The notes below the pieces were generated by a model. The model worked only from the letters and a program-made list of their open reading frames with translations. It was not told where the DNA came from and ran no database searches. From Minisyncoccota bacterium (GTDB taxonomy: Bacteria; Patescibacteriota; Minisyncoccia; Phycocordibacterales; Phycocordibacteraceae): a stretch of DNA of 39,175 nt. The stretch lies in NCBI GenBank assembly GCA_041664865.1, contig JBAYJU010000002.1:1-39175 (forward strand). Reading direction: 5' to 3'. This document shows positions 926 to 37,174 of this stretch, piece after piece (within the stretch, counting starts at the first letter, position 1; each line of letters begins with the position of its first letter). Made by a program: the position numbers and the translations under genes.

Positions 926-1020
926 CATGTTGGGACTTACGAAGTCCCATCATCGAAACCTTGCGATACTCTAGAGCTTGGCAAGAATCAAAATGTTAGG
1001 ACTTCGTAAGTCCCCACATG
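926..1020. repeat. Inverted pair of 28-nt units, each with a GGGACTT-ACG-AAGTCCC type hairpin (family 1), separated by 39 nt
   Basis: 926-953 matches the reverse complement of 993-1020 at 25 of 28 positions (hand check). Local hairpins lie at 931-949 (8-bp stem, loop ACG) and 999-1013 (6-bp stem, loop CGT). Confidence 0.85.
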
Positions 1021-2481: not shown

Positions 2482-4017
2482 ATGGATATACTAGTCGCCA
2501 TCGTCGGAGGTTTCGCGAGTGGTATATTTCTCCGCTCGCTTTTTAATTTCGGGTGGTCGCCGATTGTGTTTGTAGTTTTGATTGCTGGAATTTTTGCTGG
2601 CGCAAGATTTTTTGCGGAGTCGCGCCGAGCGTACTCGCTCGGCGCGGTGTTCTGTATTTTCATCGCGCTCGGCATGATGCGCGCGATGATTGCTGATACT
2701 CCACTTCCCGCGGCATTTGCGGGTGATCTCAAACATCGAGTTTCGTATGAGGGTGTGGTTGTCTCCGACCCTGACGTGCGCGACTCGAACCAGCGTGTTG
2801 AAGTGCGCATTTCCCATGGCGATTGGACCGCCACAATGCTCGTAGTCGCTCCGCGCTCGCCTAGCGTAATGGTCGGCGACACTGTACGCGTGTCTGGCAC
2901 ACTCGCAGTACCAGAACCATTTACAGGCGACACTGGTCGAATATTTCGCTACGACAAATATCTGCAGCGCGATGATGTGCGCTTCATGCTCAATTACGCA
3001 TATCTGCGCGTAACGAAACCTGCGCCATGGTATTCGATTCCAGCAGCTCTTGCGCGCGTGAAGCACTCGTTCCTAAATGGTCTCAACGCGACTCTGCCAG
3101 AACCGTACAGCTCGCTCGCCGGTGGCGTGGTAATAGGAGGGAAGACAGGTCTCGGGAATGAACTCCAAGATGCGTTCGTCCGTAGTGGCCTAGTGCAGAT
3201 CATCGTGCTCTCTGGCTACAACATAATGGTCGTAGCTGAATGGATAATGGCGGCACTCGCGCTCACCCCATTATCGAGACGATGGGGCACTGTTTCTGGA
3301 GCGCTTGCGGTGTTCGCTTTCGTCGGCATCGCGGGCGCATCGTCTACTGCTATTCGGGCTATGCTCATGGCGTTCATCGCGCTCTATGCGCGCGCGACCG
3401 GTCGCACTTACGCAGCGGGTCGCGCACTTCTCGCCGTCGTATTTCTAATGCTCATTTGGAATCCGCTCTATCTCGTATTCGATCCTGGCTTCGGCCTCTC
3501 GGTCGTCGCAACTGCCGGGCTCATCTGGCTAGCTCCGATTATTGAAAGAATTTTGGACTTCGTAAGTCACTCATCAGATGAGGGACTTACGAAGTCCCTA
3601 CATGGGTTTTGGAAAAATGTAGTGGCGACTACATTTGCCGCGCAAATAGCAGTTCTACCACTTTTGCTTTATGACATGGGACTTTTCTCGATTGTTGCCA
3701 TACCGGCAAACATCATTGTTGCGCCACTAGTACCGCTAGCGATGGGACTATCTGCTATCGCAGGATTTGCAGGAATGATATTTGGCACACTCGCGCCAAC
3801 TATAGGGATTGCCCTCGCATTTCCTGCATATCTCGCAAATGCCGCACTCATCGCAATCGCGTGCGGGAGCGCGGCTCTCCCGTTCTCGGCTTTCACGCTT
3901 CCGCCATTTCCATTCTGGCTCGTGCTCGCCGCATACGCGGCACTCATTTATATAGCCGCTTCGAAACGCTTCTCGACTAAAGACCAGTTGATGTTGGCGA
4001 AGAACGCATCAATATAA
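2482..4017 (+). CDS. comEC: ComEC/Rec2-family DNA internalisation channel (membrane domains only)
   Basis: 511 aa and polytopic. It has an N-terminal OB-like region followed by the competence domain (VRSGLVQIIVLSGYNI, AAQIAVLPLL). No C-terminal metallo-beta-lactamase domain is present in this ORF. Confidence 0.8.
   Translation: MDILVAIVGGFASGIFLRSLFNFGWSPIVFVVLIAGIFAGARFFAESRRAYSLGAVFCIFIALGMMRAMIADTPLPAAFAGDLKHRVSYEGVVVSDPDVRDSNQRVEVRISHGDWTATMLVVAPRSPSVMVGDTVRVSGTLAVPEPFTGDTGRIFRYDKYLQRDDVRFMLNYAYLRVTKPAPWYSIPAALARVKHSFLNGLNATLPEPYSSLAGGVVIGGKTGLGNELQDAFVRSGLVQIIVLSGYNIMVVAEWIMAALALTPLSRRWGTVSGALAVFAFVGIAGASSTAIRAMLMAFIALYARATGRTYAAGRALLAVVFLMLIWNPLYLVFDPGFGLSVVATAGLIWLAPIIERILDFVSHSSDEGLTKSLHGFWKNVVATTFAAQIAVLPLLLYDMGLFSIVAIPANIIVAPLVPLAMGLSAIAGFAGMIFGTLAPTIGIALAFPAYLANAALIAIACGSAALPFSAFTLPPFPFWLVLAAYAALIYIAASKRFSTKDQLMLAKNASI
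3555..3597. repeat. Family-1 hairpin-doublet palindrome embedded in frame in comEC
   Basis: GGACTTCGTAAGTCACTCATC-A-GATGAGGGACTTACGAAGTCC is a 43-nt palindrome with one mismatch (3569/3583). It is translated as DFVSHSSDEGLTKS. Confidence 0.85.
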
Positions 4018-6443: not shown

Positions 6444-6445
6444 CC

Positions 6446-7081: not shown

Positions 7082-7105
7082 TCTCTCTAAATATCTAAAT
7101 CATTT

Positions 7106-8926: not shown

Positions 8927-8945
8927 CCAGAAACCGCCAGAGGCG

Positions 8946-9533: not shown

Positions 9534-9537
9534 AGAC

Positions 9538-11087: not shown

Positions 11088-11091
11088 ATAT

Positions 11092-12306
11092 ATGCGGCGC
11101 TTTATTACCATCTCTGCAATCGCACTAGTCCTTCTGGGGCTCGGAGTTGGTGCGTACTTCTATTTCTTCACAGGCTCTACGGGCATCACTGTCGCACCAG
11201 TCGGGAGCGTGAGCCTACCAGTGGCTGGGCAGGGTAGTACGGCCACAGGCGACAGTGATGCGTCTAGCGGCTATTCTGCAGACACGGGCGCAACAGGTAC
11301 TCCGGTTGCAGTCTCATCGCGACTAGTGCAGATAAGTGCGGGCCCGGTAGTTCCAGGTGAAGCTGTAGTGGACACGAGACTCGCTACCGCCAGCTCTACC
11401 ACAGAAGTTGAAGTACGTTATATCGAACGCGAGAGCGGAAACGTGTTTTCATACTCACCGAGCACGCGCGCGATAACCAGAATAAACAACAAGACAATCC
11501 CTGGAATTCAGTCGGCCTCATGGCTCCCAGACGGCTCCTCCGCCTTCGTTCGGTATCTTTCAGGGGACAATTTTTCTACAATCAATACTTATGCGCTAGC
11601 AGCGACAAGCTCTAATGGGTTCTTCTTATCTCAAAATCTCTCCGATATCGCTGTGTCCTCTTCTGGAATTCTCTCGCTTTCTTCAGGCGTGAACGGTTCT
11701 GCGGTTTCCATTGCGCATACTGATGGCACACACAGCACGAACCTTTTCACCACACCTATTTCATCGCTCCGTATATCATTCGCTGGGAAGAATCAGTACC
11801 TCATATTCTCGAAACCTTCCGCGAAAATCTCTGGAGTCGCGTTCATTGCAGATGCTGTTGGTAATCTGTCTCGTATCGCCGGGCCGCTCCCTGGCCTAGT
11901 TGCCACCCCAAGCCCGTCAGGGAAGTGGGTGCTCGTGAGCTACATCAATGGCACCACCATGATAATGGCGCTCGTGAACACCGCAACAGGATCCACTTCA
12001 GCACTCCCTGTAGCAACTATTGCTGATAAATGCGTGTGGACTGCAGATGAATCATCTGTTTATTGCGGCATACCAGTCAACGCGCCTACGGCGGCATATC
12101 CTGATGATTGGTACCAGGGTACGGTGTCATTCTCAGATCGCATCTGGAAAATAGACGTAGTCGGGCGCTATGCACAGCTCGCTCTGGATTTCTCTCAGGC
12201 AAACAAGGGCGCTCTCGACGCCACAGCACTCGCTATTGACCCCGCGAACACAACCCTCGTATTCATCAACAAAAATGACAGCTCCCTCTGGAGCTACTCT
12301 CTCTAG
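11092..12306 (+). CDS. Membrane-anchored protein with TolB/PD40-like beta-propeller repeats
   Basis: N-terminal TM helix. Repeated motifs WLPDGSSAFVRY and PSGKWVLVSY. Confidence 0.45.
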   Translation: MRRFITISAIALVLLGLGVGAYFYFFTGSTGITVAPVGSVSLPVAGQGSTATGDSDASSGYSADTGATGTPVAVSSRLVQISAGPVVPGEAVVDTRLATASSTTEVEVRYIERESGNVFSYSPSTRAITRINNKTIPGIQSASWLPDGSSAFVRYLSGDNFSTINTYALAATSSNGFFLSQNLSDIAVSSSGILSLSSGVNGSAVSIAHTDGTHSTNLFTTPISSLRISFAGKNQYLIFSKPSAKISGVAFIADAVGNLSRIAGPLPGLVATPSPSGKWVLVSYINGTTMIMALVNTATGSTSALPVATIADKCVWTADESSVYCGIPVNAPTAAYPDDWYQGTVSFSDRIWKIDVVGRYAQLALDFSQANKGALDATALAIDPANTTLVFINKNDSSLWSYSL

Positions 12307-19133: not shown

Positions 19134-19668
19134 AACCACGCGCGTTTGTGAAAATCTGCTGCACATCTTCGTGTTCGTCGAGTGCCTCTAGAATCGCTGT
19201 AAGTTTCTCCTCATCTTCTCCCTCGATTTCAGTAAGTGGTTCGTTCGGTTTATAAATGTTGCCGACTTTCATAAAAGCCCAACTCGCGGCGCCTGGCGCC
19301 GCGACCTCGACACCCTGCTTCGAGAGCAAGTGTTTTATCTCTGGTGTAGTGCGGTTTTTATTATCAGTGAGTGCATCGATGATTATGGCGCAGCCGCCTG
19401 GGCCATATGCCTCATATACAACCTGCTCGAGATTGTCGAAATCTTTGGAGGTGCCCTTTAGTATTGCGCGCTCAATATTATCTTTGGGCATGTTCTCCGC
19501 CTTAGCGCGCGCTATAGCCACAGAGAGCCCTGGGGCGGTGAGGACACCATTGGCCTTCTTCGCTTCAAGAGTGATAAGGCGCGCATAGCGCGAGAACACG
19601 CGACTTTTCGCGGCATCAGTCACGCCTTTCTTCCGCTTGATTTGTGACCACTTACTGTGCCCAGACAT
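19114..19668 (-). CDS. yebC: YebC/PmpR-family regulator (compact, 184 aa)
   Basis: MSGHSKWSQIKRKKG ... NMPKDNIERAILKG. Confidence 0.85.
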   Translation of the reverse strand: MSGHSKWSQIKRKKGVTDAAKSRVFSRYARLITLEAKKANGVLTAPGLSVAIARAKAENMPKDNIERAILKGTSKDFDNLEQVVYEAYGPGGCAIIIDALTDNKNRTTPEIKHLLSKQGVEVAAPGAASWAFMKVGNIYKPNEPLTEIEGEDEEKLTAILEALDEHEDVQQIFTNARGYENTSD

Positions 19669-23485: not shown

Positions 23486-23956
23486 ATGGAAACAATTGTA
23501 CGAACACTGGCCGAGCTCGAAACAGAAGCATGCCGCTTCGTGGATGGCCTCGCGCCGAGTCCGCGAGGCGCGACTCTGGTAACACTCTCGGGCGAGCTTG
23601 GGGCTGGGAAGACTGCATTTACCAAGGCTGTAGCAAAAGCTCTTGGGGTTACTGACATGGTTACAAGCCCCACCTTCGTACTCGAGAAGATCTACCAACT
23701 TCCAGAATGTGGACATCCGGTGTCTACAGAAGGACACCGGATGTCCACATTCAAACGGCTGGTGCATATCGATGCGTACCGGCTCGAATCAGGAAAAGAT
23801 CTTGCGACACTCGGTTTCGATGAGCTCATACAAAACTCAGATAATCTAATTATGCTCGAATGGCCAGAAATAGTTGCTGACGCACTTCCTGCTCCGAGTA
23901 TTCGCATTTCTATCGTTGCGAACCCAGACGGCTCTCGTACAATTTCATATGTCTAG
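23486..23956 (+). CDS. tsaE: tRNA t6A biosynthesis ATPase TsaE (YjeE)
   Basis: LSGELGAGKTAFTK P-loop, SPTFVLEKIY and HIDAYRL motifs. It carries a roughly 16-codon palindromic insert. Confidence 0.85.
   Translation: METIVRTLAELETEACRFVDGLAPSPRGATLVTLSGELGAGKTAFTKAVAKALGVTDMVTSPTFVLEKIYQLPECGHPVSTEGHRMSTFKRLVHIDAYRLESGKDLATLGFDELIQNSDNLIMLEWPEIVADALPAPSIRISIVANPDGSRTISYV
23705..23752. repeat. Family-2 palindrome embedded in frame in tsaE
   Basis: GAATGTGGACATCCGGTGTC-TACAGAAG-GACACCGGATGTCCACATTC has perfect 20-bp arms and an 8-nt loop (checked base by base). It is translated as ECGHPVSTEGHRMSTF. Confidence 0.9.
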
Positions 23957-26354
23957 AAAAACAATAAGCAAGAAACGCATAGTGCTTCTCGACAGTCATG
24001 CGATTATCCATCGTGCATATCATGCACTCGAGAAGGCGGAAATGACCGGCCCAGATGGCACACCTACTGGCGCTCTCTATGGACTCACGTCGATGCTCCT
24101 GAAAATCATCACAGACCTCAAGCCGGATTACATCGCTGCGTGCTATGACTTGCCGAAGCCGACAATCCGCCACGAAGCATATGCTGACTACAAGGGCTCG
24201 CGCAAAGCGACCGATGACGCACTCGCTCAGCAACTGCAAGAGTCGCGCAAGGTATTCGAAGCATTTTCCATACCAATGTATGAGCGGGAAGGGTTTGAGG
24301 CTGATGATCTGCTCGGTACAATCGCACACGAATTGCGCGAAGAAGAGGGCGTCGACGTCATCATCGCCTCGGGCGACATGGACACGCTCCAGCTCGTCGA
24401 CGATGAACGCGTCCGCGTGTACACGCTAAAGAAAGGCATTCAAGACACGATTCTATACGACGAGAAGTCGGTCGTAGCACGGTTTGGATTCAAGCCTAAA
24501 CTCATTCCGGATTGGAAGGGTTTGCGTGGCGACCCGTCTGACAATATCAAGGGTATCCCTGGTGTCGGAGAGAAGACCGCGACTGATCTCATAAAGCAGT
24601 TCGGCTCGATAGAAGATATTTACGCGACACTCGAGAAGAAGGGCGAATCCGCTTTCCTTAAAAATGGAGTGAAAGCACGCATGATAGGGCTGCTCAAAGA
24701 GCACGAAGATGAGGCGCGTTTCTCGAAATCGCTGGCGACCATCAGACTAGATGTTCCGATTGCGTTCACGCTCCCGGAACATGCGTGGCGCGAGACGGCC
24801 GATTCCGAGAAAATGCTCGCCATGTGCGACGAGTTCGGTTTCAGGACCCTCAAGGATAGAATCAAGACATTGTTCGGCGCAATGAGTGGTTTCGTAAACC
24901 CATCATCTGATGATGGGTTTACGAAACCACTCATTGAAGAAGAAATAGATGACACACGTTTCAGGGAGGCGCAGGCTATGCTCTGGCTCATTTCGTCGGA
25001 GTTCACGAACCCTTCGCTCGATGATATCCTCGCGTTCGCCAAAGAGCGCACCTTCGAAGTGGCATATGAGAAACTTGAGAAACAGATTGCTGAGCTCGGG
25101 GAAGTGCACGGTGTGTATGACAACATTGAGAAACCGCTCATCCCGGTCATACTCAAGATGGAGGAGCGAGGGGTGCTAATAGACACTGGCGTACTGAGCG
25201 GTCTTGCTGACACATATCGCGCTGAGCTCGAGAGTATCGAGAAAAAGATTTATAAGGAGGCAGGGCACGAGTTCAATGTGAGCTCGCCGAAACAGCTGGG
25301 TGACGTGCTCTTCGACGAGATGAAACTCGTCCCAGATAGGCAGAAGAAGACTGCGGGCGGCGCTCGCTCTACGCGTGAAAGTGAGCTCGAGAAGATTCGC
25401 GACGCTCACCCAATCGTTGCAGACATTCTCGAGTATCGCGAGCTGAAGAAGCTGCTCTCGACTTATATAGACAATCTGCCGGCGCTGCTTGACGCGGGCC
25501 ATCGCCTTCATGCCGAGTTCATCCAGACTGGCACTACTACCGGGCGCATGGCTTCGCAGAATCCGAACTTGCAGAACATACCAATGCGCTCAGAGCGCGG
25601 TCGGGCCATAAGACACGCATTCATTGCGCCTGAAGGATTCACTCTGTTGGCGCTCGACTATTCACAGATAGAGCTACGTCTAGCGGCGATACTCTCTGGT
25701 GATGAAAAGCTTTGTGAGATATTCAAGGGTGGCCGCGATGTTCATACAGAGGTGGCTGCTCAGGTTTTCCATGTCGCGCCTGAAAGTGTAGATGCTGAGA
25801 TGCGCCGCCGCGCGAAGGTAATCAACTTCGGCATCCTGTACGGTATGGGAATCAATGCTCTGCGACAACAGCTGGGCACCACGGCGGCCGAGACGCATGC
25901 TTTTTATGAAAATTATTTCAGTACATTTAAGACGTTGTCAGAATATCTTGAGTCGACCAAGGGTTTCGCGCGGACGCATGGATACACGGAGACGCTCTTC
26001 GGTCGCCGCAGACAATTCCCGGAGATGAAGTCATCATTGCCATACGTGCGCGCACAAGCTGAGCGCATGGCAATCAATGCTCCGATACAGGGCACTGAGG
26101 CCGACGTAATCAAGCTCGCGATGGTGAGTGTCGACAGCATGCTCGAGAGGGAGGGTGCTAGTACAGACGCGTACCTACTGCTTCAAGTTCATGACGAGCT
26201 TGTGTATGAGATACGCGATGGCCGTGTCGCCAGTCTGAGTGCAAAGATAAAAGAAATAATGGAATCCATCTTGTCGCCAGAGCAAACGCATGGTGTTCCA
26301 ATCATAGCCACGATGAAATCCGGCCCGAACTGGGGCGATATGCGTTCGTTATGA
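23949..26354 (+). CDS. polA: DNA polymerase I
   Basis: 5'-nuclease domain followed by the polymerase motifs DYSQIELR, KVINFGILYGMG and QVHDELV. The start ATG at 23949 overlaps the tsaE stop (ATGTCTAG). Confidence 0.95.
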   Translation: MSRKTISKKRIVLLDSHAIIHRAYHALEKAEMTGPDGTPTGALYGLTSMLLKIITDLKPDYIAACYDLPKPTIRHEAYADYKGSRKATDDALAQQLQESRKVFEAFSIPMYEREGFEADDLLGTIAHELREEEGVDVIIASGDMDTLQLVDDERVRVYTLKKGIQDTILYDEKSVVARFGFKPKLIPDWKGLRGDPSDNIKGIPGVGEKTATDLIKQFGSIEDIYATLEKKGESAFLKNGVKARMIGLLKEHEDEARFSKSLATIRLDVPIAFTLPEHAWRETADSEKMLAMCDEFGFRTLKDRIKTLFGAMSGFVNPSSDDGFTKPLIEEEIDDTRFREAQAMLWLISSEFTNPSLDDILAFAKERTFEVAYEKLEKQIAELGEVHGVYDNIEKPLIPVILKMEERGVLIDTGVLSGLADTYRAELESIEKKIYKEAGHEFNVSSPKQLGDVLFDEMKLVPDRQKKTAGGARSTRESELEKIRDAHPIVADILEYRELKKLLSTYIDNLPALLDAGHRLHAEFIQTGTTTGRMASQNPNLQNIPMRSERGRAIRHAFIAPEGFTLLALDYSQIELRLAAILSGDEKLCEIFKGGRDVHTEVAAQVFHVAPESVDAEMRRRAKVINFGILYGMGINALRQQLGTTAAETHAFYENYFSTFKTLSEYLESTKGFARTHGYTETLFGRRRQFPEMKSSLPYVRAQAERMAINAPIQGTEADVIKLAMVSVDSMLEREGASTDAYLLLQVHDELVYEIRDGRVASLSAKIKEIMESILSPEQTHGVPIIATMKSGPNWGDMRSL
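24880..24936. repeat. Family-1 perfect 57-nt palindrome embedded in frame in polA
   Basis: 28-bp arms around the centre at T24908, with no mismatches (checked base by base). It is translated as AMSGFVNPSSDDGFTKPLI. Confidence 0.95.
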
Positions 26355-27076
26355 TTTATCTTTTCCACGGGAGCGATGCCGAGAAGGTTCGCACGAAGGC
26401 GTTCGCTTGGGTTGCGGCTGCGCGGTCTAGGGAGCCGAATCTAGCGTATGTGCGCTTGGCTCGTGAAGAGTTGAGTGATGCTGCGCTTCAAGATGCGGCA
26501 ATGTCTGGAGGGCTCTTCGTTTCGCGCCTGCTAGTGCTCATAGATGATCCGTACCCGCCTACTCATTCGATCTTTGATGAAGAAAGGGTGGACACCGGAT
26601 GTCCACCCCCATATGTTGGACATCCGGTGTCCAACCAAGATGGGCTACTTGGTGAACATGTAGACGCACTCGCGGCTTCTGACAACGCCATCATAATTCT
26701 CGCGCCGAAACTTGCGGCGGTGAAGGCGAAGAGGCTCGTCGCGAAGGCGAAAGTTGAATACAAATTTGATCTGACAACCCAGCGCCGCGAAGCGGCGCGG
26801 GGATTCAACTCAGCACTTGTGAACGCGCTCGCTAATCGCTCACGCGCCCAGCTCTGGCTCGAAGTGAATCGTGCTCTCCGTGCGGGCGACGCGCCCGAAA
26901 TGCTTCACGGTCTCCTTCACTGGAAGGCGCGCGACATTATGGAGAAGGGTAGTCGTGCATGGTCGCCAAAAGAATCGCGAGCGCTCTCGCTCGCACTCAT
27001 CGAGCTCCTACAGTCCTCTCGTCGTGGAGGTCTAGGCTTGGCACTTTCTCTCGAAAGGTTTTCATTGTCGATATAG
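26351..27076 (+). CDS. holA: DNA polymerase III delta subunit-like protein
   Basis: N-terminal IYLFHGSDAEKV is typical of HolA. ATGA overlap with polA. The call is from weak motif recognition plus context. Confidence 0.55.
   Translation: MIYLFHGSDAEKVRTKAFAWVAAARSREPNLAYVRLAREELSDAALQDAAMSGGLFVSRLLVLIDDPYPPTHSIFDEERVDTGCPPPYVGHPVSNQDGLLGEHVDALAASDNAIIILAPKLAAVKAKRLVAKAKVEYKFDLTTQRREAARGFNSALVNALANRSRAQLWLEVNRALRAGDAPEMLHGLLHWKARDIMEKGSRAWSPKESRALSLALIELLQSSRRGGLGLALSLERFSLSI
26586..26635. repeat. Family-2 hairpin doublet embedded in frame in holA
   Basis: Hairpins at 26586-26608 (9-bp stem, loop CCGGA) and 26615-26635 (8-bp stem, loop TCCGG). The cores 26589-26605 and 26617-26633 are exact reverse complements. 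It is translated as VDTGCPPPYVGHPVSN. Confidence 0.9.
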
Positions 27077-28164: not shown

Positions 28165-29394
28165 TCAAACTTCTGCGTGAAGTCGCTCAAGCTCCTCACG
28201 GATAACCTGTGCATCGCTCCACGGAGTTTTTGATCCGTTAGGTCCCATTATGAATGGGTCGGTGCCTTTTCCAGAAATCAAGACGGCGTCGCCAGGACGC
28301 GCGGCGCGAAGCGCCGCGCGTATTGCTTCACGCCGGTCCATAATTATCTGCGGCGCGCGCCCCATGCCTGCCGCCATCGCGTCGATAATATCTCTCGGGT
28401 CTTCGTCATAAGGGTCTTCGTTGGTGAGGATGACGACGTCGCAAGCTGCGTCTGCGATCTTACCCATCTCTGGCCTCTTCCATGTATCGCGGCCTCCGCC
28501 AGTGTTACCTAGCACGCAGATTTTCCTCTGATTAGGAAATGCGCCATATAGCGCGCTTAGTGAGTCTGGCGTGTGTGCATAGTCGACGATGGCGATGAAA
28601 TCCTGCCCGGCTTCGACGCGTTCGACGCGCCCACTTATGTGTGACAACTCACTGAGAGCTTTGGCAGAGGTCTCGGGCGGTACACCAAATGCTTCCGCGG
28701 TTTTTATTGCAGCGAGGGCATTCAGGATCGTGAACTTTCCGGGGAGTTGAAGCGCGAACCGTGTGCCGCAATACGAAAACGAAACACTTTTTTCATCCAT
28801 ATGAACATCACTGGTGTCAGCAAAAGAAAAAGGGATTTGCATCTCTACGGGTAGGGCTAGGAAGTCGGATCCACGCGTATCGTCTGCGTTTGCGATGATG
28901 CGTCGCGGACGCTTCATCGAATGCGTGAGCGCCTTACCTAGAGCGAATTTCGCCTGGAAATAGTTTTCCATTGATCCGTGTGATTCGATATGCTCTTTCT
29001 GTAGGTTCGTGAAAACAAGAGCGTCGAGATCTAGGAAGAGGTGCCGGTACTGCAAGGCAGCTTCGCTAGAGATTTCCACAACGGCATAGGTACACTTTTT
29101 GGTCAGCGCTTCATAGATGAATTTCTGAATGAAACCACGCCCAGGGAGAGTCATTTTGTAGAGATTTGGTCGTGATTCATTGCCGATGCAGAAGCGGATT
29201 GTCCCAGCGAGAGCTGTCTTGTGTCCTGCTGTCATTAGTATCGTGTACAGCATTTCGGCCACAGAAGATTTGCCTTTTGTTCCGGTTACGCCGATGACTG
29301 TCATATTCCTGGCTGGGAATCGGTACCAGACAGATGAGAATAATGCCCACAAGAAGTGGTATGGGGAGAGGAGTTTTCGCCGTATGTGAATCAT
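28165..29394 (-). CDS. Mur ligase family protein (MurE-like, lacking the N-terminal domain)
   Basis: VIGVTGTKGKSS P-loop plus central and C-terminal Mur ligase regions. TNEDPYDEDP occupies the position of the MurE DNPR motif. Confidence 0.75.
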   Translation of the reverse strand: MIHIRRKLLSPYHFLWALFSSVWYRFPARNMTVIGVTGTKGKSSVAEMLYTILMTAGHKTALAGTIRFCIGNESRPNLYKMTLPGRGFIQKFIYEALTKKCTYAVVEISSEAALQYRHLFLDLDALVFTNLQKEHIESHGSMENYFQAKFALGKALTHSMKRPRRIIANADDTRGSDFLALPVEMQIPFSFADTSDVHMDEKSVSFSYCGTRFALQLPGKFTILNALAAIKTAEAFGVPPETSAKALSELSHISGRVERVEAGQDFIAIVDYAHTPDSLSALYGAFPNQRKICVLGNTGGGRDTWKRPEMGKIADAACDVVILTNEDPYDEDPRDIIDAMAAGMGRAPQIIMDRREAIRAALRAARPGDAVLISGKGTDPFIMGPNGSKTPWSDAQVIREELERLHAEV

Positions 29395-29951: not shown

Positions 29952-30081
29952 TCGCCCAGCCGACGTAGTGCTATTGACAATCTATAACTAAAGCGTAGTC
30001 TATGTCTTGGAATGCGGTTCTTCGGTCTAGCGATCAAAAAAGCTTGGCTAAACAATAATTCAGAAATAAGGAGAGATGTCC

Positions 30082-30528
30082 ATGGCACTTCTAGAGAGAG
30101 TTTCCACAATAGTTATCCCCGCCATCCCTCAGTTCGTCGTAGCAGACAAACTGCGCATTGGCGAAACGGTCGACGGAATCAAGATTTGCTGGCTCGGCAA
30201 CAACATCAAGGAACACTTTCTCTCGAAAGTGGAAGTGGGTGTCGCGACTGAAGAATTGGTCACGAACAATCTTCTGCAGAGATCGAAAGACCCGGCAATA
30301 ATCACCTCTCTTGGTGGTGAAGAAAAGGTCGAGGTCAGCTGTGGCCAATTCTGGGAATACTTGAAGACGGCGGACCAGAATTTTTGGTATGTCGCATACA
30401 TCAGAGATACTGATGGCGTTCTATGGGCGGTCGGCGGCCGCTGGGGCGGCGGCGGCTGGCACTTCAATGCCAATCCGCTCGATGACCCGAGCCGCTGGAG
30501 CGATGGTCTTCAGTTCCTTTCCCGCTGA
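30082..30528 (+). CDS. Hypothetical protein (148 aa; Gly/Trp-rich C-terminus GGRWGGGGWHFNANPLDDPSRW)
   Basis: Shine-Dalgarno AAGGAG at 30068-30073, 8 nt upstream of the ATG at 30082 (an alternative ATG lies at 30076). I recognise no family. Confidence 0.55.
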   Translation: MALLERVSTIVIPAIPQFVVADKLRIGETVDGIKICWLGNNIKEHFLSKVEVGVATEELVTNNLLQRSKDPAIITSLGGEEKVEVSCGQFWEYLKTADQNFWYVAYIRDTDGVLWAVGGRWGGGGWHFNANPLDDPSRWSDGLQFLSR

Positions 30529-30620
30529 TTCTTTTCATCTCTGATCTTTTTGTCTCTTGGGCCCTTTGAAACTTTGCAAAGAAATTTGCGAGGTGGAGAA
30601 GGGTCCTTTTGTTTTTGCTA

Positions 30621-31347
30621 GAGTAGCAAGGGTAGCCCTTGCTACTCGTTTTCATCTTCTGGCTTTGTCAGCCAATCAGCGATGTGCGAGACGACGTCTT
30701 TCTTTGAAGAAAAGTAATCGGGGAATTTTGTAGGATCAGTAATAGAGTGTGAATTGTTTAGATAGGCACTGTAGCTACTGTATGGATATGTTTCCACGAA
30801 GCTCATTAAATTGTTCCCGGGGTGAATTTTCTTTTGCCACTCTGGCTCTTTAAGTTTTGCAGGGTTTAGGTGAATATAAGAAAATAGATATTCTAAATAT
30901 CGGTCAGTGTCAGCGTGAGTGCTTCTGAATGGTCCTTGGAAGAGGGAACCGCTGCGCTCGTTCTTGGTATTGAAATACATCGAATATCCTGTTTGGAGCT
31001 TGAGCATGTACTTAGAAACGCCACCTTCAACCAATGGTGTCACTAAAAGATGGAAATGATTTGGCATAAGACAGAATGCACCGATGGCTACCAAGGGTGC
31101 TCCACGATCTCGATTGAAAACATCTTCATATTTTGTTGCCTTGAGTACGTTGCCTATGCGCATTTCTTGTGCGGTGTTAGCCAGATACAGAAGCATCATG
31201 AATCTTCGGTAGTCACTCGACGATGAGAAGATAGTGCGCTTATCTACACCTCTGTTGTAAAGGTGATAGTACTCATTTTCAACAAAGGAAATTTTTCTTT
31301 CCATCCTTCGAATTGTATCACAAGGTAGCAAGGGCTACCCTTGCTAC
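30621..31347 (-). mobile_element. Minimal RAYT unit: HUH transposase gene bounded by exact inverted GTAG hairpins
   Basis: The left hairpin at 30621-30647 has a 12-bp stem and loop TAG. The right hairpin at 31325-31347 has a 10-bp stem and loop CTA. The 23-nt cores are exact reverse complements (GTAGCAAGGG-TAG/CTA-CCCTTGCTAC). Confidence 0.7.
30642..31304 (-). CDS. REP-associated tyrosine transposase (RAYT / IS200-like Y1 HUH transposase)
   Basis: HUH motif LMPNHFHLLV and the catalytic Tyr region YIHLNPAKL. The start MERKISF at 31304 is preferred because the upstream ATG at 31331 lies inside the hairpin. The stop codon lies inside the left hairpin. Confidence 0.75.
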   Translation of the reverse strand: MERKISFVENEYYHLYNRGVDKRTIFSSSSDYRRFMMLLYLANTAQEMRIGNVLKATKYEDVFNRDRGAPLVAIGAFCLMPNHFHLLVTPLVEGGVSKYMLKLQTGYSMYFNTKNERSGSLFQGPFRSTHADTDRYLEYLFSYIHLNPAKLKEPEWQKKIHPGNNLMSFVETYPYSSYSAYLNNSHSITDPTKFPDYFSSKKDVVSHIADWLTKPEDENE

Positions 31348-31367
31348 GGATATCGAATCATGAGTGT

Positions 31368-31376
31368 ATGGTAGCA
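31368..31376 (-). promoter_or_regulatory. Extended -10 TGCTACCAT driving a 5-codon ruvA-like mini-ORF (MIRYP*, 31344-31361) and probably the RAYT gene
   Basis: The minus strand reads TGCTACCAT-ACACTC-ATGATTCGATATCCGTAG. The stop codon lies in the right REP hairpin. Confidence 0.4.
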
Positions 31377-31522
31377 TCGTGCTGGCACCGGCGTGCTATT
31401 TACAAATGAATATATGCATGTACTCTAACGGTAGAGTACAGATCCTTAAGTAAATTGGGCGAACGGAATTGTCCGTTTAGCTCACAAAATACATACACAG
31501 GAATTGGAAAAGGAGGTAGGTC

Positions 31523-32140
31523 ATGTTGAGAAGAATCTTCGTGTTTATTTATGAAGTACTGGCAACGATTGTGGGCGCAGCTGTTCCGGCTGCTGTGGCG
31601 GAAGTGTTTCGCAAGAAATTCCGAGCTTCAGAAGAAGCACAACCACCCACGCCTGCATTTGAGAGAAATGATAAAGGACACATAATAATTTCAGTCTGTA
31701 TTGGAGATCGTGAGATCAAGAGGATCGAGGCAGCAAGACTTCGTGTTGATTGTGATGCGAGATCTTGTTTGAACAACGAGGATTACCAGATGGAGCATCG
31801 TAGGGTTGTTGGACGTGTGTACAGGGTCGCACTTGTACCGGTGAGCAGTGTCTGGTGTGAAGACAGAACACTCTCAAATCTCCAGATGCTTGGAGCGAGG
31901 AGTGGCTGCCAGAAGAGGTCGCACGCTTGGCTGATTCCAAGCATATGCTTATCTATATCGGGCAAGATGATGAGTGAAATGGGGTACGGCCGTATTATCT
32001 CACCCAGCCCCATCACCATTAGTGACAGGTACAGGGGAAATTTAGCTGTGGTGTTGGGTTGCAGCAGCAGTGGACGGCTCCGTGGATATCCTGCCGACAT
32101 CAAATGGCCCGCTGATACAGCGGTCGCCTTTCCAGTTTGA
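31523..32140 (+). CDS. Hypothetical protein (205 aa, N-terminal hydrophobic segment)
   Basis: Shine-Dalgarno AAGGAGG at 31510-31516, 6 nt upstream of the ATG. It has a leader of about 100 nt with two hairpins (31420-31439, 31462-31477) and its own terminator. I recognise no family. Confidence 0.55.
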   Translation: MLRRIFVFIYEVLATIVGAAVPAAVAEVFRKKFRASEEAQPPTPAFERNDKGHIIISVCIGDREIKRIEAARLRVDCDARSCLNNEDYQMEHRRVVGRVYRVALVPVSSVWCEDRTLSNLQMLGARSGCQKRSHAWLIPSICLSISGKMMSEMGYGRIISPSPITISDRYRGNLAVVLGCSSSGRLRGYPADIKWPADTAVAFPV

Positions 32141-32169
32141 ACCATTTTGTGTTGATCTTTTTGCATATA

Positions 32170-32212
32170 GGCTCCGCATTGCTTTATAGCGCGCGGAGCC
32201 TTTCTGTTTTCT
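32170..32212 (+). terminator. Rho-independent terminator
   Basis: GGCTCCGC...GCGGAGCC stem followed by TTTCTGTTTTCTT. Confidence 0.6.
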
Positions 32213-32277
32213 TGCTAGAATATTTCGTGTCGCCGGATTTGCCATAGAAGGGGAGATGGCGTATATATAAGGGACAT

Positions 32278-32544
32278 ATGGCAATAACAAGTTCAGCGAA
32301 GAAAGCGATCCGTGTGGCGGAGAAAAAGCATGTGTTCAACCTGCGCCGTAAGAACGAGCTTCAGGACACGACCAAGTCGATCACCAAGGCGCTTGCCGCC
32401 AAGGATGCTACCGGGGCAGAGAAGCTTCTCCCGGCTGCTTATAAGGCAATCGACAAGGCAGCGAAGCGCGGCGTGATCAAGGCGAATACCGCCAGCCGTA
32501 AGAAGTCTCGTCTTGCATTGGCTATCAAGAAGGCGAAGGCATAA
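32278..32544 (+). CDS. rpsT: 30S ribosomal protein S20
   Basis: MAITSSAKKAIRVAEKK ... AIDKAAKRGVIKANTASRKKSRLA. A TATAAG-type -10 lies 6 nt upstream of the ATG. Confidence 0.9.
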   Translation: MAITSSAKKAIRVAEKKHVFNLRRKNELQDTTKSITKALAAKDATGAEKLLPAAYKAIDKAAKRGVIKANTASRKKSRLALAIKKAKA

Positions 32545-32557
32545 GTGCATATATAAG

Positions 32558-32598
32558 AATCAAAAACGGGCGCCGCGAAGCGGCGCCCGTTTTTGATT
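32558..32598. terminator. Perfect bidirectional rho-independent terminator
   Basis: AATCAAAAACGGGCGCCGC-GAA-GCGGCGCCCGTTTTTGATT has a 19-bp stem. Confidence 0.85.
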
Positions 32599-32621
32599 CT
32601 GAGTCCGTGTATACTATTCCC

Positions 32622-34529
32622 ATGCAAAGCTACATAAGCGCAGGTCTCAAGTCATGGTGGAATGTATTCAAGTTTATTTTGTATTTCTTCTCAATCAAGA
32701 CTCTTTTCAAGACACTTCTTTCTGGCTGGGAACGTGATTCATCAGATGGGCATGAATGGTGGGAGCGCTTGATACTGGGCGCAATTTTTATTGTATTCGG
32801 TTTCATATTCCGCATCGTCGTGATTATTATTGGCCTCATCGCACTGACCCTTTCTATCGTGCTACTACCAGTTTTGCTGATCATTCCCATCCGTTTCTCG
32901 TATGAACGTCTCGTTAGGATCGGTGCAATCGGCAAGTCATGGTCATACGGGCAGTCGCTGACACTGCACCGTTCTGGCATCGCGCTGTATAAAGGGGGCG
33001 ACAAGAAGCTGTATGGGCGTGAAGAGCTGGTTGAGCACATGACCCGCATTCTCTGTAGAGAAGATAAAGACAACTTGCTTATGGTTGGTGCTCCAGGAGC
33101 AGGGAAGAGGACAGTCCTATCTCAATTCGCAAAAGACGTATATCGCGGTCTTGTTCCAGCAAGTCTTCAGAACCGCGAGATGATAGAGATACCTCTATCT
33201 GAAATGCCTGTCACGACCTTGAGGAAGATCTTTGCAGAAGCACAGAAAGCGGGTAACATCATCGTGGTATTTAGCGAGCCGGAGAAATATCCTGGCATGC
33301 TAGAGGAGATAGTTCCGCTACTGAAGGCATATGAGCTGCAGGTAATCGTGATCACGTCACTTGATGGCTATGTGCAGTCATGGAAGGATCGTGAAGACGT
33401 GCTTCGTTATCTCGAGAGAATAGATGTGCTACCTCTTGATGATGCCAAGACGCTCGAGTTTCTCACCGATCATGTGAAGGATAATTACAGGGATGTAAGT
33501 TTTGAGGACGGAGTCTTGGAAGAAATCATCAGGCGCACAAATGAGCTCATACAGACGAAGCTTCAACCAGAGAAATCGCTCGACCTACTAACAGAGCTGG
33601 TCGTTAATGTAAAAAGTGTCACGATCAAAGATGTAGACAGAGTGCTCTCGCAGAAGACCGGCGTACCTCTTGGTGCAATCGAGCGCGATGAGAAGCAAGT
33701 CCTCCTTGCGCTTGAAGACGTGCTCAGCACAGAAATAGTCGGGCAGAAAGAAGCTATACGCGATGTCGCTTCGGCACTTCGGCGCGCACGCACTGGCGTT
33801 GCCAGCAAGGGTAAGCCGGTAGGGTCGTTCCTTTTCCTGGGCCCTACTGGTAGTGGCAAGACGCACACGGCGAGGATGCTTGCGCGGCACTATTTCGGAG
33901 GCGATGGAGTTATGACTAGATTCGATATGTCTGAATTCGCGCTGCCAGTAAGCGAGACTGCATTTGTGGAGCGTCTCGCGCTCGCGATAGAGGAGAACCC
34001 ATTCGGGCTGCTGTTCTTCGACGAGCTTGAGAAGGCAGACAAGATAATCTTGAATACTCTCCTCCAGGTCCTTGATGAGGGGCGTCTCACGACCCGGGTA
34101 GGCCGGACGGTATCATGCAAGAATTCCATCATAATCGCCACGTCTAATGCGGGCACAGCTTTCATCGAGGAGCACCAGGATACTACAAAAGATTCAATCA
34201 CTCATTTTCTAATTGACACACAGCTTTTCAGCCCGGAATTCTTGAATCGCTTCGACGACATCGTCCTTTTCAAACCACTTACGAATGAAGACGCTCACGC
34301 CGTCACTCGGCTTTTACTTGAGGATCTAAACAAGAGGCTTTCACAAGAGCGTGGCGTAACCGTAGAGATCACAGATACCTTGGTACATGGATTGGTAGAT
34401 GCTGGATTTGACCATGCGAACGGCGCTCGTGCTCTTCGCCGTGTTATGCAAGACATTGTAGAAAATAAGGTAGCAGACGCGATACTGCACGATAAGGCAG
34501 CGCCTGGGAGCCGTATCATAATTGGGTAG
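32622..34529 (+). CDS. Membrane-anchored Clp/Hsp100-like double-AAA+ ATPase (first module degenerate)
   Basis: N-terminal hydrophobic helices. D1 has GAPGAGKRT but no Walker B (IIVVFSEPEK). D2 is intact (GPTGSGKTHTA, LLFFDELEKA, sensor GARALRR). The start at 32622 is preferred because TATACT at 32610-32615 lies 6 nt upstream. Confidence 0.75.
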   Translation: MQSYISAGLKSWWNVFKFILYFFSIKTLFKTLLSGWERDSSDGHEWWERLILGAIFIVFGFIFRIVVIIIGLIALTLSIVLLPVLLIIPIRFSYERLVRIGAIGKSWSYGQSLTLHRSGIALYKGGDKKLYGREELVEHMTRILCREDKDNLLMVGAPGAGKRTVLSQFAKDVYRGLVPASLQNREMIEIPLSEMPVTTLRKIFAEAQKAGNIIVVFSEPEKYPGMLEEIVPLLKAYELQVIVITSLDGYVQSWKDREDVLRYLERIDVLPLDDAKTLEFLTDHVKDNYRDVSFEDGVLEEIIRRTNELIQTKLQPEKSLDLLTELVVNVKSVTIKDVDRVLSQKTGVPLGAIERDEKQVLLALEDVLSTEIVGQKEAIRDVASALRRARTGVASKGKPVGSFLFLGPTGSGKTHTARMLARHYFGGDGVMTRFDMSEFALPVSETAFVERLALAIEENPFGLLFFDELEKADKIILNTLLQVLDEGRLTTRVGRTVSCKNSIIIATSNAGTAFIEEHQDTTKDSITHFLIDTQLFSPEFLNRFDDIVLFKPLTNEDAHAVTRLLLEDLNKRLSQERGVTVEITDTLVHGLVDAGFDHANGARALRRVMQDIVENKVADAILHDKAAPGSRIIIG

Positions 34530-34532
34530 TCT

Positions 34533-35096
34533 TTATTTTGGAGACCAAATCTGTTTTGCCCGATCTGGTACTGTGCCAGGAGAGGCTGTGCTGTAACAGC
34601 CAGTATCTGTAGGCCAGACAGCTTCAGAATGCCATAGTTTTAATTCACAACGTTCAGGATTTGATTTATTTTCGAGATTGGTTATAAGGTCATATTTTTG
34701 TCGATCGGATGATACTCCATAGGTATAAGTAAGAGCGCTCCACCACGGAGTATCGCCATACCCCTCAACGATCGTATTTGTCGGATCCCTCTGTGGTTTG
34801 ATGAAGTTTAGAAAGTCCTGGTCGGTGCTCAGCCAGTTTGGTTCAGTGCATTTGCTAGTGGCCCAGTCAGTGCGATACCCACCACAGGAGCTTGATGGGC
34901 GAAATGGAGGGTATGCCCCATGCGTTATGTAATAGAGCTCAAGAGCTACTTGAATCGAATGTAAATCTTCCTGTCTCTTTGCATCGCGCGCTTTCTCGCG
35001 TGCAGTATTAAGGCTTGCAAGCACGATGCTCGACAAGAGTCCGATTATCGATATGACAACAAGAAGCTCTATAAGCGTAAACCCTCGCTGTTTCAT
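34533..35096 (-). CDS. Type IV pilin / pseudopilin
   Basis: Prepilin signature MKQRGFTLIELLVVISIIGLL. Confidence 0.85.
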   Translation of the reverse strand: MKQRGFTLIELLVVISIIGLLSSIVLASLNTAREKARDAKRQEDLHSIQVALELYYITHGAYPPFRPSSSCGGYRTDWATSKCTEPNWLSTDQDFLNFIKPQRDPTNTIVEGYGDTPWWSALTYTYGVSSDRQKYDLITNLENKSNPERCELKLWHSEAVWPTDTGCYSTASPGTVPDRAKQIWSPK

Positions 35097-35413
35097 CGTT
35101 GGAAAAGAGCCGCATCATAGGACTGCGTGCTACGACCGCTCTTTAATATGTCATTTTCTTGGGGCGAAAGCTGACCAACGTCCTGTCTTGGGTACGAAAT
35201 AAATGCGATGATCGACATAATAAACACCAGAACTAATAATACATAATTTGCATGATGTACATCGTTGATTAGTCCATACGAGTAGCGAATGACCAAACGA
35301 TTCAGCAGCGGGATGCTTTCTTTCGCTGATCTTGGCAACTCGTCTTCGTCGGTGAATGTAATTCTTGAACGTTCATCCATAGCATCAATGATGTCCTTAA
35401 TTATAACACTCAA
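35093..35413 (-). CDS. Small membrane protein, unknown function
   Basis: One TM helix (YVLLVLVFIMSIIAFI). ATGA overlap with the pilin gene. Confidence 0.4.
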   Translation of the reverse strand: MSVIIKDIIDAMDERSRITFTDEDELPRSAKESIPLLNRLVIRYSYGLINDVHHANYVLLVLVFIMSIIAFISYPRQDVGQLSPQENDILKSGRSTQSYDAALFQR

Positions 35414-35653: not shown

Positions 35654-35708
35654 CGAGAGCACCAAATGAAAAAACGGCATTATGCCGTTTTTTCATTTGG
35701 TGCTCTCG
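35654..35708. repeat. Perfect 55-nt palindrome that includes the tRNA-Arg(GCG) 3' end and its terminator
   Basis: CGAGAGCACCAAATGAAAAAACGGCAT-T-ATGCCGTTTTTTCATTTGGTGCTCTCG has 27-bp arms (checked base by base). Confidence 0.9.
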
Positions 35709-35772
35709 GTGGGAATCGAACCTACATCGCGACCTCCGCAAGGTCGTGTCCTATCCATTGAACGACGAGAGC
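35698..35772 (-). tRNA. tRNA-Arg (anticodon GCG), CCA encoded
   Basis: Hand-folded: acceptor GCTCTCG/CGAGAGC, anticodon arm CGACC-TTGCGGA-GGTCG, T arm GTAGG-TTCGATT-CCCAC with one A-C mismatch. Confidence 0.8.
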
Positions 35773-36760: not shown

Positions 36761-37174
36761 ATGCGGTACCTCGGAGTGGATTATGGAAGTTCAAAAATCG
36801 GGCTCGCGCTCTCTGATGAGGCTGGCACGATGGGCTTCCCACATTCGGTCATATCGAACACGCCACGGCTCGTAGATGATCTGTGCGCTCTCGTTGCGAA
36901 AGAGGGCGTCGGCGCGGTGGTAATCGGCGAGTCGCGCACGCTCGCTGGAGGGGAGAACCCGATTGCGAAGGATGCTCGCGCACTCGGCGTGAGGATCGCC
37001 GAGTGCGCGAGCATCCCGGTATTCTACGAATCAGAAGTATTTACAAGCTCTGAGGCGCGCCGTGCTCCGGCTAAAGAGATGAAGACGCGCGCCGCTCCGC
37101 GTCGCGCGAATGTGGACGCCTCGGCTGCTGCACTTATTCTTACGAGTTATTTGTCCCATACGAATCATGAATAA
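36761..37174 (+). CDS. ruvX: Holliday junction resolvase-like / pre-16S rRNA nuclease YqgF (RuvX)
   Basis: MRYLGVDYGSSKIGLALSD. Confidence 0.85.
   Translation: MRYLGVDYGSSKIGLALSDEAGTMGFPHSVISNTPRLVDDLCALVAKEGVGAVVIGESRTLAGGENPIAKDARALGVRIAECASIPVFYESEVFTSSEARRAPAKEMKTRAAPRRANVDASAAALILTSYLSHTNHE

Follow-up and report, generated by a model that had tools for sequence, protein, structure and literature searches.

The 39,175-nucleotide stretch of DNA analyzed here (positions 1 to 39,175 of contig JBAYJU010000002.1, Minisyncoccota assembly GCA_041664865.1; hereafter the window) contains polA, the gene for DNA polymerase I (Pol I), and within it a perfect palindrome at positions 24880-24936 (CAATGAGTGGTTTCGTAAACCCATCATC-T-GATGATGGGTTTACGAAACCACTCATTG). 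The two 28-nt arms are 100% complementary and are separated by a single nucleotide. The palindrome is 57 nt long and lies in frame within the PolA open reading frame (ORF; 23949-26354, plus strand), which remains open throughout and has the translation ...FGAMSGFVNPSSDDGFTKPLIEEE... at this point, as an initial reading made from the DNA letters (hereafter the sequence-only reading) had stated. In PolA the palindrome is flanked by the 5'-3' exonuclease domains (Pfam; end at residue ~308) and by DNA_pol_A (residues 441-822); these positions are numbered on an 826-aa ORF, whereas polA at 23949-26354 comprises 801 aa. Folding of the palindrome yields -47.9 kcal/mol for the RNA (z = -14) and -31.6 kcal/mol for the DNA. 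About 5e-13 perfect 28-nt arm pairs are expected in 39 kb, and the window harbors 20 perfect hairpins with stems of at least 8 bp as compared to 4.25 in shuffled sequence. Chance is therefore excluded as the origin of the polA palindrome.

The palindrome consists of two hairpin units. The unit ATGAGTGGTTT-CGT-AAACCCATCAT is joined through CTG to its own exact reverse complement, and the doublet is read in frame as (A)MSGFVNPSSDDGFTKPLI. Both units belong to a family of hairpins, designated family B, with the 25-nt consensus ATGATGGGTTT-ACG-AAACCCATCAT. The sole difference between the polA arms and this consensus is a TG>GT swap, present in mirror image in the two arms (23 of 25 positions match). 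A metagenome scan with GATGGGTTTACGAAACC yielded 57 loci, approximately 30 of which contain the full family B hairpin ATGATGGGTTTACGAAACCCATCAT; no further contig of the genome under study was among them. A doublet in comEC, with 21-nt arms and one mismatch, and the units between recJ and rnhA belong to a related family, designated family A, with the consensus (C)ATGTGGGACTT-ACG-AAGTCCCACAT(G); the window contains four family A units. Scanning one genome per species with the family A core GGGACTTACGAAGTCCC revealed 86 loci, 77 of which are in Patescibacteria-type contexts, and the exact 17-mer is present in 5-10 copies in single metagenome-assembled genomes (MAGs; JALHPE01, JBAYHD01, MFMU01, CAINVT01, and JBBTSD01). 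Families A and B are dispersed across many Kaiserbacteria and Paceibacteria genomes. The recJ-rnhA spacer of one relative (L091; L numbers denote fetched loci), which is ~70% identical in DNA, has a matching arrangement of inverted family A units. An Rfam search returned no family for any of the palindromes, its sole matches being four tRNAs.

At least 12 places contain head-to-head doublets of CGT and ACG hairpins whose cores are 12-15 nt apart. These include polA and comEC in the window and, elsewhere, L035, L041, L055, L056 (two doublets), L066, L070, L100, L126, and L146; CTG or CAG centers resembling those of polA and comEC are also present in L055, L070, L089, and L146. The sequence-only reading had assigned the polA and comEC copies to one family with one layout. 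The layout is indeed common to both, but GGGTTT-ACG-AAACCC and GGGACTT-ACG-AAGTCCC represent sister families. In other genomes each sister family has transposase gene copies of its own (see below), and the polA and comEC elements are not a single family drifting in this genome. Other claims of that reading fared better. Its core reading extends beyond the window, as both families are multi-copy and dispersed in Patescibacteria, and the polA and comEC copies are read in the same relative frame, as it had proposed (LDFVSHSSDEGLTKSL versus SGFVNPSSDDGFTKPL). Likewise, its claim that changes between copies preserve nucleic-acid structure rather than peptide agrees with outer stems that covary and with frames that differ at one loop.

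The 17-nt core of the hairpin is fixed across genomes, and the next four stem pairs change jointly. The resulting outer stems are of several types, including ATGTG/CACAT, GATATC/GATATC, TCTAG/CTAGA, AGTGG/CCACT, and TCTTG/CAAGA. For 89 distinct units we obtained a stem covariation score of 0.27, compared with 0.096 for shuffled stems; none of 500 shuffles attained the observed score, and partners slid out of register reached 0.15 at most. Stem pair 5:25 is either GC (41) or UA (37), while pair 6:24 is UA (43), GC (19), AU (8), or CG (7). Copies within the same genome share descent and hence do not constitute independent events, but the occurrence of several distinct stem types between genomes is informative nonetheless.

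Hairpins of families A and B are associated with genes for HUH/Y1 transposases that resemble RAYTs (REP-associated tyrosine transposases; REP, repetitive extragenic palindromic sequence). In 13 fetched loci, an HUH/Y1 ORF of 212-234 aa adjoins family A or B units, and in 11 of the 13 the repeat units of that same genome flank the RAYT on one or both sides and/or lie inside it. Family A units flank RAYT genes in L018, L022, L029, L045, L052, L085, L087, and others. Linkage to family B, the polA type, was observed in L092 and L142 as well as in L122, which has an internal family B unit. The motifs NHYHLLL (HUH) and Y(I/L)HLN (catalytic tyrosine) are invariant among the family A/B RAYTs; together with the RAYT-like protein encoded in the window they become NH[FY]HLL and Y[IL]HLN. 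Most of the family A/B RAYT genes carry one internal unit in frame, located in a fixed loop between an N-terminal strand/helix and the HUH motif and read as DFVSP, GLRKS, GLRNP, or GFGNP depending on the genome. These linkages come from other genomes; for the organism under study, the 39-kb stretch is what was covered.

The RAYT proteins match Pfam Y1_Tnp with 22-29 bits. Direct sequence searches of the PDB with the RAYTs gave no match. The Y1 protein of the window is 31-35% identical to the RAYTs linked to families A and B, lacks an internal REP copy, and belongs to a family with thousands of members that are annotated just as "transposase". We regard it as the product of a genuine RAYT-like gene. 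An AlphaFold2 (AF2) model of this protein (predicted local distance difference test (pLDDT), 86) was compared to known structures with Foldseek; the best match was 4er8_A (E = 1.2e-6, template-modeling (TM) score 0.70), which is E. coli TnpA-REP with a REP hairpin and which ranked above the TnpA proteins of IS608 and ISDra2. Many homologues of the window RAYT are found on contigs of just 1-2 kb, which fits with nearby repeats breaking metagenome assemblies.

Family A units reside mostly in genes. Among the 96 units at Patescibacteria loci, 67 lie in ORFs of at least 100 aa and 41 in ORFs of at least 250 aa. For positions drawn at random from the same loci, the share in ORFs of at least 100 aa is 90%, as compared to ~70% for the units (Fisher p = 1.3e-7); thus, the units are mildly depleted from genes yet mostly intragenic. 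The long hosts identified by Pfam include PheT (6), class I tRNA synthetases (4), and Mur ligases (4), together with TGT, TsaD, PIF1 helicases, UvrC, AlaRS, PurH, LigA, ATP synthase gamma, and GluRS. At a particular PheT surface loop (residues ~77-90; L036, L076, L078, and L083), a family A unit is present in four combinations of frame and orientation, each with genome-specific outer stems, while in L034 this loop is empty and the unit occupies another loop instead. These findings point to a hot spot or to turnover in place, and it is the DNA, rather than the peptide, that recurs. Frames giving GL(T/R)KS predominate (27 of 41 copies in long ORFs); the ORF census drops the stop-containing frame by construction, so that the absence of this frame is no evidence of translation. 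The elements leave their host ORFs open, alignments of orthologues show the sites to be hypervariable or prone to insertions and deletions, and species differ in whether the orthologous sites in ComEC, PheT, TsaE, and PolA are occupied.

ComEC provides a clear view of such a site. Most of the 120 ComEC homologues are 499 aa long with the empty site ...LSF-IKN-AFWKN..., and the window protein is 12 aa longer at that point. One homologue (P0136) has a similar doublet peptide, and about one third hold other inserts at this loop. In L149 (comEC at 1001-2635) and L150 (comEC at 1001-2596) the loop contains an in-frame element of 90-100 nt with terminal inverted repeats of 15-21 nt (GGGCAAGACTTTTTCGGAGAG...CTCTCCGAAAAAGTCTTGCCC). 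Elements of this loop in relatives encode, for example, FRRVxQVQRHP..GLSETLS or KIFESYLPSA.FPSGKAERSQKS. Doublets of another family, designated family C, lie in tsaE and in a HolA-like ORF and have in common the core GGACA-YCSGR-TGTCC. TsaE of the window is 11-12 aa longer at its doublet than the proteins of the relatives L002 and L004, and the HolA-like protein exceeds them by 10 aa (L002) and 23 aa (L004). Family C also occurs in L068, within a class I synthetase gene, in frame and with a spacer nearly identical to that of the tsaE doublet, and in L085, within an ORF of 818 aa. The sequence-only reading had described this family, as GGACA-CCGGA-TGTCC, in tsaE and holA; both doublets are present, but the assignment of the second host is weak, resting on a match to TIGR01128 with 23 bits over the N-terminal 70 aa. 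Four of the five doublets in the window are intragenic.

The situation in PolA differs. The linker that the doublet occupies (RIKTLFG ... EEIDDTRF) is hypervariable and of similar length throughout the 120 homologues, including those with 75-81% identity from MAGs labeled Paceibacterota, Minisyncoccota, and Kaiserbacteria. In relatives L002 and L004, which also keep the order tsaE-polA-HolA-like, the linker lacks a palindrome (L002) or encodes ...PTSxVGAPTESVG... from two unrelated small hairpins (L004 and 11 others); the family B peptide occurs in the lineage of the window only. Of the in-frame insertions proposed for four genes by the sequence-only reading, those in ComEC, TsaE, and the HolA-like ORF are upheld as lineage-specific insertions at variable loops, whereas the PolA element replaces the linker without net lengthening. 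In an AF2 model of PolA, residues 312-329 appear as a coil linking helices 299-315 and 335-348, with pLDDT values of less than 50. This supports the loop placement that had been suggested for the segment and, as modeled, the palindrome encodes exactly the disordered stretch that connects the 5'-nuclease to the polymerase. We take this stretch to be the flexible, protease-sensitive tether of Pol I, with the 5'-nuclease on one side and the Klenow-like part on the other. Coding of the palindrome peptide by non-palindromic DNA, a finding that would have spoken for an ordinary peptide segment, was not observed among the 120 PolA or the 120 ComEC homologues. Positions of these features are listed in Table 1.

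Table 1. Hairpin elements, their host genes, and RAYT-like genes in the window and in fetched loci (L numbers).
Feature	Position	Strand	Remarks
Family B REP doublet (REPIN-like)	24880..24936	none	two 25-nt units, CTG-joined head to head
polA (801 aa)	23949..26354	+	doublet encodes aa 311-329
Family A doublet GGACTT-CGT-AAGTCa ... CAG ... GGGACTT-ACG-AAGTCCC	3555..3597	none	in frame in comEC
comEC	2482..4017	+	host of family A doublet; insertion loop is a hot spot for several palindromic families in relatives
Family A unit CATGTTGGGACTT-ACG-AAGTCCCATCAT	926..953	none	intergenic, recJ-rnhA
Family A unit, inverted orientation	993..1020	none	intergenic, recJ-rnhA; 53 nt core to core from the 926..953 unit
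Family C doublet GTGGACA-TCCGG-TGTC / GACA-CCGGA-TGTCCAC, spacer TACAGAAG	23705..23752	none	in frame in tsaE
tsaE	23486..23956	+	family C host; start inferred from alignment with L002/L004
Family C doublet	26586..26636	none	in frame in HolA-like ORF
HolA-like ORF	26351..27076	+	family C host; weak match to N-terminus of DNA polymerase III delta
RAYT-like HUH/Y1 transposase gene	30642..31304	-	220 aa; motifs NHFHLL and YIHLNP
Family D hairpin GAGTAGCAAGGG-TAG-CCCTTGCTACTC	30621..30647	none	at 3' end of RAYT gene
Family D hairpin GTAGCAAGGG-CTA-CCCTTGCTAC	31325..31347	none	21 nt upstream of RAYT start
RAYT-like gene	L022:3689-4345		internal genome-specific REP, flanking copies
RAYT-like gene	L018:1965-2639		internal genome-specific REP, flanking copies
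RAYT-like gene	L029:3419-4075		internal genome-specific REP, flanking copies
RAYT-like gene	L052:6984-7679		internal genome-specific REP, flanking copies
RAYT-like gene	L085:5588-6283		internal genome-specific REP, flanking copies
RAYT-like gene	L087:1134-1832		internal genome-specific REP, flanking copies
RAYT-like gene	L092:508-1344		internal genome-specific REP, flanking copies
RAYT-like gene	L142:677-1381		internal genome-specific REP, flanking copies

The anatomy of the hairpins, their membership in families, the doublets, their dispersal, the covariation of stems, the linkage to RAYT genes in other genomes, the placement in loops and linkers, and the presence or absence at orthologous sites form the basis of a model for the polA palindrome, which we consider likely to be a REPIN-like element (REPIN, inverted REP doublet) that is mobilized by a RAYT and translated as a passenger. 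In this model, two 25-nt family B REP hairpins joined head to head via the 3-nt CTG would form hairpins in single-stranded DNA. A RAYT of the HUH/Y1 type acting in trans most likely recognizes, cuts, and rejoins these hairpins, which would spread them throughout the genome. The host genomes comprise ~1 Mb and are ~90% coding, such that insertions would survive only in short spacers and in tolerant surface loops and linkers. Copies inside genes with an open reading frame would persist because the genome is nearly all coding and insertions are tolerated only at such positions; those that are in frame and avoid the single stop-containing frame would be translated as short, hydrophilic passenger peptides. 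The predicted PolA product would accordingly include a palindrome-derived peptide such as TLFGAMSGFVNPSSDDGFTKPLIEEEIDDTR. Having taken over a flexible tether in which sequence is presumably unconstrained, the doublet is expected to leave the enzyme working normally. The polA copy would thus be neutral or nearly so, and the element would represent selfish or commensal DNA rather than a feature of polA.

Several observations weigh against this model. The RAYT gene of the window is flanked by a third type of hairpin, designated family D (GTAGCAAGGG-NNN-CCCTTGCTAC), which starts with GTAG. The sequence-only reading had placed the palindromes next to a RAYT gene; a Y1/RAYT-like gene is indeed in the window, but hairpins matching those of polA or comEC do not flank it. 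Because its flanking hairpins are of family D, this RAYT is probably not the mobilizer of the polA or comEC elements, and we rejected it as the cognate enzyme of the polA element. Family D flanks also bound homologues of the window RAYT in L151, L152, and L153, for a total of four different neighborhoods including the window. Within the 39 kb, family B occurs once, as the polA doublet, and no RAYT of the family A/B type was seen. For PolA, no pair of empty and filled sites was found; the nearest relatives are ~80% identical and their linkers are equally long. Families A, B, and C have neither GTAG nor CGTC, and their feet are ATG(T/A)TG or vary between genomes, which is a difficulty as regards families A and B. 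The sole NCBIfam match of the RAYTs is REP_Tyr_transpos, with 27-37 bits compared to a curated cut-off of 80, and in a profile search of the PDB with 12 sequences 4er8 appeared at a non-significant E = 0.55. To the same side belong the perfect symmetry of the polA arms and a palindrome in ruvX, both of which are considered below in connection with template switching.

The best-surviving alternative, although we deem it unlikely, is that the hairpins are functional elements selected by the host, acting in translation pausing at domain boundaries, in mRNA stability or attenuation, or as protein binding sites, and that their linkage to RAYTs is incidental. An identical 17-nt core in many genera with covarying outer stems would be in keeping with such a role, although specificity of a transposase explains core conservation equally well. 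Some sites are kept between genomes of ~70% identity, as is the recJ-rnhA doublet of the window and L091, the polA element lies at a domain boundary and forms a very stable RNA hairpin, and the RAYT genes hold their unit at a fixed position. On the other hand, the units occur in diverse host genes and at diverse positions, orthologous sites frequently lack them, and the polA copy is confined among 120 homologues to the lineage of the window. Moreover, the lower frequency of units in ORFs than of random positions (70% versus 90%) is what would be expected of mildly harmful insertions.

Slightly less probable still is a fold-back replication error, in which a template switch overwrote one side of the PolA linker with the reverse complement of the other and no mobile element was involved. 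The perfect polA arms, which share the TG>GT difference from the consensus, and the unchanged linker length are consistent with such an event. Indeed, the window contains an apparent product of this process in ruvX (36970-37016), a unique, perfect palindrome of 20+7+20 nt with no change in length relative to the L004 orthologue. Resemblance to the orthologous DNA is limited to its left arm (13 of 20 positions), as is characteristic of a template switch, and the ruvX palindrome seems to have arisen by such a mutation at the expense of conserved coding sequence (IAKDARALGVRIAECAS versus IAKYAKALGSLITEHTG). However, each polA arm is a near-consensus copy of a repeat that is found on dozens of unrelated contigs and flanks RAYT genes, and the head-to-head layout with a 3-nt CTG or CAG spacer recurs in other genes and genomes. 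Consensus copies and recurring doublet geometry led us to reject a purely in situ origin of the polA palindrome. At the most, a template switch could have doubled a single REP unit that was already in place; the arm symmetry and shared private variant indicate either movement or origin of the doublet as a whole or copying of one arm from the other, and a local template switch may have contributed to this symmetry.

There is very little chance that the elements reflect a conserved peptide motif, such as GLTKS or GFTKP, that is under selection at the protein level with palindromy as a by-product. The over-representation of GL(T/R)KS frames in long ORFs and the common frame of the polA and comEC copies would agree with this idea, but the same DNA unit is read in five frames and orientations, including within the same PheT loop and the same RAYT loop, approximately 30% of copies are intergenic, and the stem covaries at the level of DNA; multi-frame use in the PheT and RAYT loops led us to reject it. 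An assembly or sequencing artefact is just as improbable: fold-back chimeras can yield perfect palindromes, but contig L001, from a different Joint Genome Institute sample (3300037810), is 100% identical to the window over 4861 bp including the palindrome, which rules out the chimeric join that the sequence-only reading had named as a risk, and the ORF is open and in frame and the same families occur in MAGs of many unrelated projects.

The model of a RAYT-mobilized, REPIN-like element can be extended, albeit more tentatively. It is tempting to speculate that in Patescibacteria the main long-term habitat of RAYT-REPIN systems is the loops and linkers of genes, including essential ones, and that the hairpins are kept there by RAYT-dependent turnover or homogenization rather than by chance survival; we rate this as a possibility with somewhat less than even chances. 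If true, such turnover would explain how genome-specific stem variants come to occupy one orthologous loop. In the same vein, the fixed in-frame position of the REP inside RAYT genes may hint at self-recognition or autoregulation, by way of a hairpin in the gene or its mRNA.

The window contains other palindromes and features of note. A perfect palindrome of 27+1+27 nt at 35654-35708 (…AAAAAACGGCAT-T-ATGCCGTTTTTT…), whose right arm overlaps the 3' end of tRNA-Arg(gcg) (35698-35772, minus strand), resembles a bidirectional terminator but is unusually long. Another at 32556-32600 (21+3+21 nt; AAAAACGGGCGCCGC-GAA-GCGGCGCCCGTTTTT) is perfect and terminator-like, with A/T runs beside it, and is located between a small ORF and a ClpB-like AAA gene. 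Perfect hairpins with stems of 8-11 bp, mostly GC-rich, lie at 2621-2646, 19284-19304, 23547-23569, 28297-28321, and 3615-3636 in comEC, a yebC-like gene, tsaE, and a Mur ligase gene; at least those at 23547 and 3615 are not insertions because they encode residues that are conserved in orthologues. In L151, two perfect palindromes of 18+1+18 nt (36-72 and 168-204) with a GAAGTC-N-GACTTC center are in frame in a DNA glycosylase gene and appear to represent yet another family of coding palindromes. Comparison of window positions 30076-35413 with L004 14791-15232 reveals a variable block (unknown ORFs, the RAYT, a ClpB-like AAA+ protein, pilin-like genes, and tRNA-Arg) that is absent at the corresponding place in L004. 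This block separates or surrounds ruvA and a small ORF at 32278-32544 that is rpsS20-like by position only. A type IV secretion-like cluster (PrgI-like, VirB4/TraG-like ATPase, and TrbC/VirB2-type pilin) at 5997-12306 lies beside housekeeping genes.

REPs and REPINs are textbook examples of extragenic DNA, and coding palindromes have been regarded as a curiosity of Rickettsia without a known transposase; the elements described here combine the two. A RAYT-linked hairpin system lives mostly inside the genes of ultra-small genomes of the Candidate Phyla Radiation (CPR), where it occupies the same loops of essential enzymes across species and the transposase gene itself. Here one can ask, in a tractable case, how selfish DNA survives where hardly any non-coding space is left, how new peptide segments enter conserved proteins, and how RAYTs recognize their substrates. 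On the practical side, such hairpins break assemblies and inflate the number of apparent "lineage-specific inserts" in CPR proteins.

The elements can be compared with four known systems. Template-switch (quasipalindrome-correcting) mutations likewise produce perfect inverted repeats in coding DNA without a change in length, as in ruvX, but do not account for a consensus repeat that is common to many loci and genomes. Members of the IS200/IS605 group (IS608 and ISDra2 TnpA) belong to the same HUH/Y1 superfamily acting on hairpins in single-stranded DNA, and the window RAYT with its two flanking GTAGCAAGGG hairpins is IS-like in that its neighborhood differs between genomes. In contrast, the polA and comEC repeats are 25-nt units with no transposase between them, and the fold search favors TnpA-REP. 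Rickettsia palindromic elements (RPEs), reportedly described by Ogata and colleagues in 2000 and 2002, are in-frame palindromes in coding genes, housekeeping genes among them. RPEs measure ~100-150 bp, are restricted to Rickettsia and its relatives, and lie at surface loops and linkers, seemingly compatible with function, in a reduced genome with little intergenic space. We know of no dedicated transposase that is tied to RPEs. The elements studied here also are in-frame coding palindromes at loops and linkers of a reduced genome, but they are built from 25-nt units (doublets of 43-57 nt), comprise several families whose sequences are unrelated to RPEs, reside in Patescibacteria, and are linked to RAYT genes.

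The closest likeness is to the REPIN/RAYT system. REPs are extragenic hairpin repeats, described mainly in proteobacteria, whose inverted doublets (REPINs) fold into one long hairpin; in P. fluorescens SBW25, doublet spacings are 71-110 bp (Bertels & Rainey 2011, PMC3116915). Here too, short hairpin repeats occur in many copies (family A, 5-10 per MAG; family B, ~30 on metagenome contigs) and form inverted doublets that have a preferred spacing and fold as one hairpin. In other genomes, units of families A and B flank a single HUH/Y1 gene, as do family D hairpins in the window, and the enzyme of the window folds most like E. coli TnpA-REP (4ER8). The doublets described here are tighter, with a 3-nt spacer and a total length of 57 nt in polA. 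Classical REPs carry a 5' GTAG/CGTC tag that is lacking in families A and B, whereas family D has GTAG. Family A/B RAYT genes, unlike classical RAYTs, carry a REP in their own coding sequence, and the RAYTs here are longer (~220 aa) and score below the curated cut-off for RAYTs. Finally, REPINs are extragenic by definition, whereas ~70% of family A units lie in ORFs, in frame, with many hosts being essential. The system has the repeats, the doublets, and the enzyme of REPIN/RAYT and departs from its extragenic definition.

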